A stretch of 64,000 nucleotides of DNA from Nitrosotalea sp. (GCA_025451075.1 JANWLA010000041.1:68315-132314), one strand, 5' to 3'; shown: positions 58,048 to 60,695, counted from the stretch's first letter. Translations and numbers: made by a program. The notes: generated from the letters alone by a model not told the origin.

Positions 58048-58299
58048 GGTTTAGCTAAATCCTTTTCTAGCCGCTATTAAACGTTTAGAAGAATTATAAA
58101 AAAAATCAATGGATCATGGAAGATCTAGATCCTTAGATTTTTCCACCAAGATCATGTTTTGATTTTATCACACCAAGATGACAAGATTTTCAGACATTAA
58201 AAAAATAGCAATGGTGTAGATCTCATTTTATGATAGTTGAAAATTTCAAGTAACATTTGGAAACTTGATTTTTATTATAGGGCACGAAAACCAACTCTT

Positions 58300-59121
58300 G
58301 TGGATATTACAATAGGGCACACACCTGATGCTGATGATGCTTTTATGTTCTATGGGATGTTGAGTGGTAAAGTCACCTCTCCTCACTTTAACGTAAAACA
58401 TGTTGTAGAGGATATTGAGACTTTGAACAAACTTTCCTTGAAGCACGAGCTTGATGTTACAGCAGTATCGGCCCATGCATGTGCATATCTTGACAAGTAT
58501 ACCATACTGCGAAGTGGCGGAAGCTTTGGCAAGGGTTATGGCCCAATCGTAGTTGCAAAACAAGACCTAGATATAGAAAAATTACGAAAATCCAAGATTG
58601 CAATTCCAGGAAAACTTACTTCGGCATTTCTTCTTTTAGAGTTGATGATTGGCAAGTTTGATTATACAGAAATGAAATTCAGCGACATCCCAGATGCAGT
58701 TGCAAGCGGCGAAGTAGATGCTGGCCTTGTAATACATGAGGGGCAGATTACATATGATCAAAAAAATCTAGTAAAGCTACTTGATGTCGGTTCGTGGTGG
58801 AGAGACAGCACAGGAGGCTTGCCTGTTCCGCTTGGGGTCAATGTCATGAGCAATCATTTTGGAGTTGAAACAATCAAAAAATTTGATGAATTCTTTAGAG
58901 AGTCAATCGTATACGGGATGGCAAGGCCTGCTGAAGCACTAGACTATGCAATGCAGTATGGTAGGGGGCAGTCAAAGGAAACAATTGATAGATTTGTTCG
59001 AATGTATGTCAACGACGTAACAATAGAGATGGGAATACTCGGAGAGCAAGCAATCAGAAACTTGTTCAAGTTTGGAATAGAAAAGGGTCTTGTTCCAGAA
59101 TTTGAGCTTCGCATAGCTTAA
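58300..59121 (+). CDS. mqnD: 1,4-dihydroxy-6-naphthoate synthase (futalosine pathway)
   Basis: GHTPDADDAFMF, DIETLN, GYGP, IHEGQ, LPVPLG, MYVN; GTG start at 58300. Confidence 0.88.
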   Translation: MDITIGHTPDADDAFMFYGMLSGKVTSPHFNVKHVVEDIETLNKLSLKHELDVTAVSAHACAYLDKYTILRSGGSFGKGYGPIVVAKQDLDIEKLRKSKIAIPGKLTSAFLLLELMIGKFDYTEMKFSDIPDAVASGEVDAGLVIHEGQITYDQKNLVKLLDVGSWWRDSTGGLPVPLGVNVMSNHFGVETIKKFDEFFRESIVYGMARPAEALDYAMQYGRGQSKETIDRFVRMYVNDVTIEMGILGEQAIRNLFKFGIEKGLVPEFELRIA

Positions 59122-59123
59122 GT

Positions 59124-59275
59124 GGTTCTGTCAACTTGATGGTTCATGCTTGAACCTCAACTAACTTGCTTCCATCTACTCGAAGGATTAGTGGCTGTAA
59201 GTATTCCACGTTCCCATTCATCGCTTCAACTAAAAGCCCTCCAGGATGGCAAAACCTACTCCACCCCTTGTAAGC
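59124..59275 (-). ncRNA. Putative omega/reRNA scaffold overlapping the tnpB 3' end
   Basis: Inferred from TnpB biology: post-RuvC tail and element end ..GTTGACAGAACC; boundaries approximate. Confidence 0.5.
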
Positions 59276-60310
59276 AATATTCATGGATGCAATTACATCT
59301 CTATCCATTGATCTCTTACAATTAATGCACAACAATTTTCGTCGGTGAAACCTGTCCTCTTGGAGTCTCCCTCCGCATATTGGACAGAGTTGGCTTGTGC
59401 GTTTAGGATCTACAAATCTAACAGGAATTCCTTCCCATTCTGCCTTGTATGTAATCTGTCTTTGCAGTTCGTAGAACGACCATGAGTTTAATTTCCTTCT
59501 ATACCTATTCCCTTGACCATTTCCCTTTCTGTAGAGTTTGCGGATTCCTTTTAGATCTTCTAATACAATCATCGATTTAGATTCTTTAGCTCTTTGTACG
59601 ATATCTTTTGAGATCTTATGCAGATGTTGCTGTATCCTTCTTGCACGCCTGTTTCCCAGCCTTTGCTGGAAATGCCTCTTTACTCTTACGTCAAATCTCT
59701 TGAAAGATGACATCACATGAGATGTGTTTTCCTTTATCGAGAGTATCTTGTTGGTCTTGTACATAATTGATTCATTTGAAGTTGATATTGTAATATTTCT
59801 CAGGTTCCTATCAATTCCAATCACATTTTCAGGAATGATTTGTTCTACTTCCTTTCTCACTGAAATTGAGACAGAGTTTGGTGTTATTGTAAATGATCGT
59901 GGTTCTGCATTTTCCAGTTGTGATATGGCGCGCTCATGTAGTTTGACCAAAAACTTGTCATCATTTGAGATCGGAAATGACAAAAGCATACCAGATATCT
60001 TGAAACCATAGCAAGAAACTAGATATGGTTTTGCTATGTATGGAGATTTTTGGGTTCGTCCCTTCTTCATATCTCTTTTTCTTTGAGCTAATCTTCCCAT
60101 TGCCTGCGACATGGCCGTAAGCTTGTATTTGGATTGTATATCAAACTGGGACAAATCCTTGTAATGTAGCGATGAGAATTTTTTTAGAGTTGATATGTTC
60201 TCTTGTAATCCTATTTTTATGCAAAAATTTACCATTTCTTTGAATGTCTCCATCAATGATGAGATACAATCAGGAAATACGTAGTCTTGCTTTATTGATT
60301 TGACTGCCAT
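59144..60310 (-). CDS. tnpB: TnpB RNA-guided endonuclease
   Basis: RuvC-I IGIDRN, RuvC-II IVLEDL, TSQLCPICG..CINC, RuvC-III DRDVIASMNI; start MAVKS with TATA-like CTTAAATA ~25 nt upstream. Confidence 0.92.
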   Translation of the reverse strand: MAVKSIKQDYVFPDCISSLMETFKEMVNFCIKIGLQENISTLKKFSSLHYKDLSQFDIQSKYKLTAMSQAMGRLAQRKRDMKKGRTQKSPYIAKPYLVSCYGFKISGMLLSFPISNDDKFLVKLHERAISQLENAEPRSFTITPNSVSISVRKEVEQIIPENVIGIDRNLRNITISTSNESIMYKTNKILSIKENTSHVMSSFKRFDVRVKRHFQQRLGNRRARRIQQHLHKISKDIVQRAKESKSMIVLEDLKGIRKLYRKGNGQGNRYRRKLNSWSFYELQRQITYKAEWEGIPVRFVDPKRTSQLCPICGGRLQEDRFHRRKLLCINCKRSMDRDVIASMNIAYKGWSRFCHPGGLLVEAMNGNVEYLQPLILRVDGSKLVEVQA

Positions 60311-60416
60311 TTGGATATTGACTTTTTTAATATTTAAGATGTAGGTATTATCAAGATTTTTCATGAACCATAAGTTGACAGAGATTTATTTACCGCACTT
60401 TAGAAATTAGATCTCA

Positions 60417-60695
60417 ATGGACAAACGCGTCTTTGCACTTGGCATTGCAATGCTAGTTGTAGGTTTCTCAGTTTATGGGTATCTAAATGAGAATGTGCCA
60501 ACTGGAAAGGCAGACATGACAGATGACGAGATAAACGCATTGCACGAGGCAGAGGTTGTCAATACGGGATTGAGCAACATTGCAGGAATGATGGGAGGAT
60601 TGGGGTTTTTCATTTTACTCATAAGCATCGGTCTGAAGCGTAGAAAGAAAGGCGGCGAAGGAAAATCAATTACGCAAAAGCCGGCTGAAATTTAG
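60417..60695 (+). CDS. Two-TM membrane protein
   Basis: Two hydrophobic segments, KRRKK tail. Confidence 0.7.
   Translation: MDKRVFALGIAMLVVGFSVYGYLNENVPTGKADMTDDEINALHEAEVVNTGLSNIAGMMGGLGFFILLISIGLKRRKKGGEGKSITQKPAEI

Follow-up and report, generated by a model that had tools for sequence, protein, structure and literature searches.

How does a tnpB gene move when it stands alone, with no tnpA beside it, between inverted repeats of a kind that the usual TnpB elements do not have? This question is raised by a locus in a Nitrosotalea-like ammonia-oxidising archaeon (assembly 85% complete), within a 64,000-nucleotide stretch of DNA that we refer to throughout as the window. Elements of the IS200/IS605 type lack terminal inverted repeats, produce no target duplications, insert directly 3′ of the TAM and depend on a Y1 TnpA (PMC13565253). 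TnpB itself has been explained in print as restoring IS200/IS605 and IS607 elements after their scarless excision (PMC13565253). A preliminary description of the window proposed a different arrangement, in which a TnpB/omegaRNA module had been captured by an IS6-like DDE transposon and was mobilised in trans. We examined the element, its copies in this and related genomes, the unoccupied insertion sites and the transposase-bearing elements that share its ends. The reading that best explains these observations as a whole, to which we assign a probability of about 0.85, is that the locus carries a tnpB/omegaRNA cargo on the ends of an IS6-like DDE transposon, with the transposase most likely supplied in trans and with empty sites most likely cut by TnpB at a TAM.

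Results

A repeat-bounded tnpB insertion next to mqnD

The element sits between the host gene mqnD and a gene for a 92-aa membrane protein (Table 1). Its repeat arms pair at 11 of 11 positions between 59127-59137 and 60372-60382 and at 10 of 10 positions between 59139-59148 and 60362-60371, with a single indel separating the two blocks (21/22 overall), exactly the 21 matches and one indel that the preliminary description had reported. Read from 59124, the right end is GGTTCTGTCAACTT; it begins 2 bp past the mqnD TAA (59119-21) and contains the tnpB TGA (59144-46), and the coordinates thus bear out both the close abutment on mqnD and the overlap with the tnpB stop codon. The inverted repeat is far beyond chance, and two paralogues in this genome, along with dozens of relatives, have the same ends.

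The unoccupied site is present in at least 12 genomes of the same genus, where it reads ...GCTTAAGT^TATTTACC..., with position 59123 joined directly to 60386/60387. Because these sites read uninterrupted at this point, the insert comprises 59124-60385 together with one ambiguous T (60386), either an extra or a junction base, and alignment of the copies with the empty mqnD site has thereby fixed both of its ends. The left arm opens with ATCTC where the right arm has GGTTC, three of the five tip bases being unlike, and the empty sites show that this odd left tip is nonetheless part of the insert. Allowing offsets of up to ±3, we found no 8-bp target duplication at the window copy, in agreement with the earlier remark that no clean duplication was visible; several other tnpB copies likewise lack one. 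A simple deletion model for the missing duplication gave no clean fit. Given the degenerate left tip and the absence of a duplication, the window copy is probably stranded and no longer mobilisable, despite its intact nuclease gene.

Among the 58 genus genomes that contain the mqnD locus, the element is present in this genome alone. The mqnD reading frame is unaffected by the insertion, and the same stop codon is found in the empty sites. In relatives, only about 33 nt lie between the mqnD stop and the ATG of the 92-aa membrane-protein gene (window 60386-60417), a gap that suggests co-transcription of the two genes. With the 1.26-kb insertion now between the two genes, expression of the downstream one may rely on transcription out of the left end of the element.

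Table 1 Features of the tnpB element and its flanks, in window coordinates.
Feature	Position	Strand	Basis or remark
Whole tnpB-only, non-autonomous IS6-like element	59124..60385	-	1262 bp; empty sites and span of homology with L002
Right-end terminal inverted repeat GGTTCTGTCAACTTGATGGTTCATG, 3′ of tnpB	59124..59148	.	Holds the tnpB stop codon
Left-end inverted repeat	60362..60385	.	Tip degenerate; 1-nt deletion relative to right arm
mqnD, flanking host gene (menaquinone biosynthesis, futalosine pathway)	58237..59121	+	Pfam VitK2_biosynth, 1.2e-71
tnpB ORF from probable start M19, 388 aa	59144..60310	-	Comparison with L002; starts of homologue alignments
tnpB open frame from upstream ATG, 406 aa	59144-60364	-	Read from sequence
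TATA-like A/T-rich box, about 13-27 nt upstream of M19	60323..60337	-	Read from sequence; kept in L002
Predicted omegaRNA scaffold over tnpB 3′ end	59124..59270	-	RNAalifold; weaker stems to about 59385
Terminal hairpin of predicted omegaRNA	59130..59165	-	dG -13.5; 5′ arm, last tnpB codons; 3′ arm, inner repeat
Predicted guide, read-through past right end	59104..59123	-	Predicted from known TnpB architecture
Left-flank bases directly 5′ of guide-matching sequence in empty site	60387..60389	-	ATA on tnpB strand; fits D-T-R

The nuclease gene is intact

The RuvC D-E-D triad of the window TnpB is intact, and the protein has a zinc ribbon. Its open frame scored 147 bits against the NCBIfam model guided_TnpB (NF040570; cut-off 100) and matched Pfam Cas12f1-like_TNB at 4.6e-21, and the nearest solved structures were Cas12f and TnpB chains. 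Across 33 homologues at 37-100% identity, the triad residues D185, E269 and D356 and the zinc cysteines C327, C346 and C349 were unchanged, which upholds the initial description of the gene as catalytically intact. The true start of tnpB is probably M19 (60310), since the closest copy in this genome (L002) has ATA in place of the upstream ATG and homologues align only from residues 17-20. The A/T-rich box upstream of M19 is a putative internal promoter, from which tnpB would be transcribed as a leaderless mRNA.

Homologous copies carry paired ends and 8-bp target duplications

This genome contains four tnpB matches. The closest, L002 on contig C23, shares 89% DNA identity with the window element over exactly the same span; its ends match at 20 of 24 positions, and a perfect 8-bp direct repeat, ATTAACTG, lies on both flanks. 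Within the right-end repeat of this copy (L002 2685-2745), the tnpB stop codon has changed from TGA to CGA, and the frame stays open for 19 more codons, across the right end and into the flank. A second copy, L003 on contig C11, is a 644-bp internal-deletion derivative with the complete tip GGTTCTGTCAAGTTTAyGrCTCAT at both ends, and L004, a paralogue with 39% identity, likewise ends in ...AACTTGACAGCCCC. The IS6-type GGTTCTGT tip is accordingly intact in L003, in relatives and at the right end of the window copy, and degenerate at the left end of the window copy.

Across the genus, 31 of 61 genomes carry tnpB genes of the window lineage, and one genome has as many as 14 copies. The complete genome G094 holds three copies at about 97% identity, each with its own duplication (CTAGATAA, TGAATCAA and TTTTGGA, the last matching at 7 of 8 positions). 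Altogether, 14 independent tnpB-only insertions in Nitrosotalea-like and Nitrosotenuis genomes are flanked by duplications matching at 7-8 of 8 positions. Inverted repeats of 21-25 nt are found at the window copy and at its homologues, which keep the upstream repeat rather than losing it. The two subfamilies among the copies of this genome differ at identical repeat positions in both arms (CAACTTGA versus CAAGTTTA), and the two arms therefore co-vary.

One insertion site, with the duplication TAAACCAT, is shared by copies in two genomes (L027/L064 in G151 and L063 in G217) with a 2-3 nt offset at the left end. The TnpBs at this site differ, showing 56% and 60% identity to the query, and the site represents either an old orthologous insertion or a single site used twice.

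IS6-like DDE elements share the ends

A search for transposases flanked by these ends recovered IS6-type DDE elements with 8-bp duplications. The terminal motif GGTTCTGTCAAsTT gave 67 exact matches in 44 of 201 Nitrosopumilaceae genomes and 13 of 27 genera, compared with about 7 for a reversed control, and it bounds both tnpB-only elements and IS6-family DDE elements of 2-4 kb. In genome G038, for example, a DDE_Tnp_IS240 protein is encoded by two elements, one of 3.87 kb whose 30-nt repeats are perfect and whose duplication is AAGTATTC, the other of 1.45 kb. Within the genus of the window, L082 (2478 bp, duplication TGACACTG) and L081 (2336 bp) encode the same type of transposase. Perfect 8-bp duplications together with GGTTCTGT-type repeats were found at 15 of the 30 DDE loci that we fetched.

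Transposases in elements bounded by GGTTCTGTmAAsTT scored 131 and 124.9 bits on the NCBIfam IS6 equivalog (NF033587), for which the cut-off is 125; the next-best family for this partner transposase was IS1, at about 65 bits. The partner is 380-455 aa long with an N-terminal zinc domain, and transposases of this type occur in 69 of the 201 family genomes. The likeness of the ends to those of the IS6 family, noted in the preliminary description with IS257 as an example, is supported by the published IS257 end, GGTTCTGTTGCAAAGTT (PMC4856351).

The resemblance between the two kinds of element extends beyond the terminal tip. The right end of the window copy matches the IRL of one DDE element (L128) at 22 of 24 positions and the IRR of two others (L081 and L140) at 21 of 24. 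When we compared only the inner repeat positions 9-24, tnpB-element repeats matched DDE-element ends at a mean of 12.05 of 16 positions, against 7.03 ± 0.32 for shuffles.

Several further properties of this group of elements were observed. For four DDE elements (L116, L122, L127 and L133), and probably also L128 and L129, the distance to the end of a neighbouring element is exactly 8 bp (AGAACC-N8-GGTTCT). These amount to four to six of the 15 with duplications, a pattern that suggests strong targeting of IS6-like insertion to ends already present in resident copies. The DDE elements also carry passenger ORFs (L037 1030-4896 in G038; L082 2869-3894; L081 2528-3415), including a homologue of ClpP/SDH-type serine proteases (PF01972, 1.2e-13) and proteins of 295-341 aa with hydrophobic N-termini and no family match. 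We considered whether these 295-341 aa products of ORF2 are diverged TnpBs and rejected the idea, having found neither similarity to TnpB nor a Pfam or NCBIfam match. Finally, an 861-bp miniature in G200 (L028 1501-2361) has the same ends and a perfect duplication, TCATAAAA, with no tnpB or DDE gene, and resembles a MITE-like derivative.

The transposase would act in trans

A tnpB and a DDE gene within one pair of ends were never seen in the genomes searched, and the two genes were never adjacent in the five genomes compared in detail; mobilisation would therefore occur in trans. The preliminary description had also noted the absence of tnpA, and no Y1 TnpA (PF01797) was found in this 85%-complete genome. 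Y1 TnpA is present in 5 of the 61 genus genomes, in none of the tnpB-rich ones, and where it is present its partner TnpBs belong to a different lineage at 32-35% identity (L184 in G220:C290, L185 and L186). One of these loci, L186, also holds a 35-aa C-terminal stub of an IS6-type TnpB together with its right end. Neither a Y1 nor a serine TnpA accompanies the tnpB copies studied here.

These data bear on the most conventional account of the locus, namely an ordinary tnpB-only element of the IS200/IS605 (IS1341) group, moved by a Y1 TnpA through peel-and-paste, with a repeat that is incidental or related to a hairpin. In keeping with such an account, the protein falls in the general guided_TnpB family, the window copy has no target duplication, and a few genus genomes do carry Y1 TnpA. 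Yet 14 homologous copies combine paired inverted ends with exact 8-bp duplications, neither of which Y1 elements make; Y1 TnpA was not found here or in tnpB-rich relatives and elsewhere pairs with TnpBs of only 32-35% identity; and the conserved flank motif described below lies 8 bp from the left end rather than abutting it. We consider this account highly improbable.

The preferred reading, an element carried on IS6-like ends, calls for a DDE transposase with matching ends, and we looked for an element encoding one in the 85%-complete assembly and found none. Two IS6-like DDE genes are present in the genome (G000 C64:1803-2927 and C69:12249-13370; L006 and L005), encoding proteins of 390-395 aa with 84% mutual identity and about 41% identity to the partner type, their homology being confined to the ORF. 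No inverted ends were detected around these two genes or around distant DDE paralogues of G094, and the C64 and C69 genes may be immobile or domesticated transposase genes. The sequence GGTTCTGTCAATGT beside them was considered as a shared end and set aside, as it lies inside their ORFs at about residue 107; about 7 occurrences of a 12-mer with one mismatch are expected per genome, and we treated it as chance. In G094, the sole bounded DDE element agrees with the recently active tnpB copies at only 14 of 23 end positions. The proposal of a TnpB module captured by an IS6-like transposon and moved in trans is thus supported in its shared ends and duplications, and lacks a counterpart in this assembly in the form of a transposase with matching ends; that a DDE transposon "captured" the module is something we infer about its history. 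Mechanistically, an IS6-like transposase supplied in trans would bind the repeats and insert the element by staggered 8-bp strand transfer.

The right-end repeat forms the last stem of a predicted omegaRNA

To characterise the RNA component, we aligned the last 280 nt of 26 elements and folded the alignment with RNAalifold. Nucleotides in this region are near-invariant where the proteins differ. The consensus contains 36 pairs, with 98% of cells paired compared with 33-50% in slid controls, and compensatory changes occur in 13 pairs compared with 1-5 in controls. In about 24 of the 26 copies a hairpin forms in the segment that follows GATGGAAGCAA, with arm sequences that differ between copies; its 3′ arm is the inner right repeat, leaving AGAACC single-stranded before the flank. 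An Rfam scan of 58900-60600 found no omegaRNA family and returned one sub-threshold chance match.

From this fold, the omegaRNA would end in a hairpin built partly from the right-end repeat, followed by AGAACC, and would read on into the flank. Beyond ...ACAGAACC the transcript would run into the predicted guide, which lies antisense to the final codons of mqnD and its stop. The suggestion that the terminal repeat doubles as the scaffold-guide boundary is supported by these results, given that the repeat forms the last stem before the predicted guide in nearly all copies.

The fold also raises the possibility that the inverted repeat is purely structural, serving transcript-end pairing or termination at the RNA or DNA level, and that its likeness to IS6 ends is coincidental. 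The inner right arm does join a conserved hairpin, as this explanation would have it. In the hairpin, however, the partner of the right arm is a stretch of tnpB codons, not the left arm; DDE elements and the 861-bp miniature, both with 8-bp duplications, are bounded by these same termini of 14-24 nt; and the match at inner positions is far above that of shuffles. A purely structural origin is scarcely credible on these grounds.

A one-sided flank motif is consistent with a TAM

We assembled the 14 duplication-bearing tnpB sites and the true empty site of the window, several of them from the same genomes. At all 15 of these independent sites the left flank has T at position -2; at position -1, 12 have A and 3 have G, and C does not occur at position -3. 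Other positions from -12 to +20 did not depart from background, and the far side shows nothing. The T-R dinucleotide at tnpB sites is unexpected from base composition (binomial 7e-13), and IS6-like elements without tnpB show it on just 4 of 30 sides (Fisher 1.1e-8).

The guide would consist of the target duplication and the right flank, and if so the end of the left flank is where the TAM lies in the empty allele. We hold with moderate confidence that the T-R motif is the footprint of the TnpB TAM, about D-T-R. In the unoccupied allele, T-A/G directly precedes the guide-matching sequence at all tnpB insertions that could be traced. On this basis TnpB most likely acts by cutting sites that are empty or have reverted, and such cutting would favour retention or copying of the insertion. 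More specifically, we tentatively propose, at somewhat less than even odds, that TnpB serves a non-excising IS6-type transposon: the guide would combine the fresh 8-bp duplication with the right flank, the D-T-R TAM would be placed 8 bp outside the element, in its left flank, and only insertions that chance to fall next to a TAM would be kept or driven into empty alleles.

The motif might alternatively be a target preference of the moving transposase, or an artefact of sampling or relatedness, with TnpB irrelevant to persistence. Each tnpB subfamily may be moved by a cognate transposase with a preference of its own, the motif spans just 2-3 nt, and several of the 15 sites share a genome. Against this, a DDE transposase normally has a symmetric target preference, and the motif is confined to the left side; it is rare (4/30 sides) beside elements that share the ends and carry no tnpB; and it falls exactly where a TAM must lie for a right-flank guide, also at the empty site of the window. 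On balance, preference or artefact seems a rather unlikely source of the motif.

A different role for the window copy would be that of an immobilised or domesticated TnpB that serves the host, for example through a guide antisense to the 3′ end of mqnD, with either mqnD or the 92-aa gene as its target. The ORF is intact even though the left tip is degenerate and the duplication missing, the predicted guide overlaps the mqnD stop region, and the downstream gene is separated from mqnD by 1.26 kb. Against such a role, the insertion is private to this genome among the 58 with the locus, the element is multi-copy and closely like mobile copies, its catalytic residues are intact, unlike those of known domesticated, nuclease-dead TnpB repressors, and the occupied site does not present the TAM-plus-target arrangement. 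We therefore regard domestication as very unlikely, and favour a stranded member of a mobile family.

Discussion

The element described here is a variant of the DDE-linked TnpB that has been in print since 2023, and it is new by the IS6 family of its partner and by the mechanistic consequences of that partnership. Altae-Tran et al. (2023) described six DDE-associated TnpB branches (DDE-1 to DDE-6) with inverted terminal repeats, and solo TnpBs that share ends with transposase-bearing elements, implying mobilisation in trans (PMC10691335). Our elements resemble these in their symmetric inverted ends, which are shared with DDE-bearing elements, and in the position of the tnpB 3′ end near one transposon end, and differ in that no single element was found to hold both tnpB and the DDE gene. 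According to a 2026 review, TnpB has DDE partners of the ISL2, IS630 and IS1031 types (PMC13565253), whereas the partner here is IS6-like and makes 8-bp duplications. A literature search for TnpB paired with IS6-type elements found no such paper.

Comparison with other systems sharpens this placement. Like members of the IS6 family (IS26, IS257/IS431 and ISS1), the elements have ends that begin GGTTCTGT, and 8-bp duplications flank 15 DDE elements and 14 tnpB-only relatives, the window copy itself having none. A classical IS6 element measures about 0.8 kb, encodes a transposase of about 230 aa and transposes by replicative cointegrate formation (copy-in). The archaeal partner elements, in contrast, span 2-4 kb with extra ORFs and encode transposases of 380-455 aa, and the window element has no transposase. 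With the IS1341 group of IS200/IS605, the element shares tnpB as its sole gene, a predicted omegaRNA over the tnpB 3′ end and a predicted guide drawn from the right flank; it departs from IS200/IS605, whose elements have subterminal hairpins at both ends, in terminal repeats, in duplications (at homologous copies), in predicted TAM spacing and in Y1 dependence. Fanzor in TIR/DDE transposons offers a further parallel, as a TnpB-type nuclease cargo with target duplications and a guide RNA running into the transposon end. Fanzor differs in occurring in eukaryotes and viruses, in its rearranged catalytic glutamate, and in having a TAM that includes the duplication itself (TA, TTAA), whereas the elements studied here have a motif upstream of a duplication that varies.

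These distinctions matter for annotation, because tnpB genes of this kind should not be filed under IS200/IS605. Compact archaeal TnpB-omegaRNA pairs, for which a very short TAM is predicted, are also available from this family, which illustrates, as far as the predicted fold goes, how one set of bases can serve both as guide-RNA scaffold and as transposase binding site. If the proposed role in a non-excising transposon is correct, the right-end repeat would be at once a transposase binding site, the mirror of the left end and the 3′ arm of the last omegaRNA stem.

The broader question is what a guided nuclease does for a transposon that stays in place. The 2026 review discusses why TnpB should help only transposons that excise and leaves open its role for DDE transposons (PMC13565253). 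An IS6-type host is not expected to excise, and the one-sided motif at tnpB insertions is absent from tnpB-less sisters; together, these points lead to the prediction that TnpB selects the insertions that persist by cutting empty alleles. Should this hold, the insertion sites of these archaea would provide natural-history evidence for TnpB homing without transposon excision.
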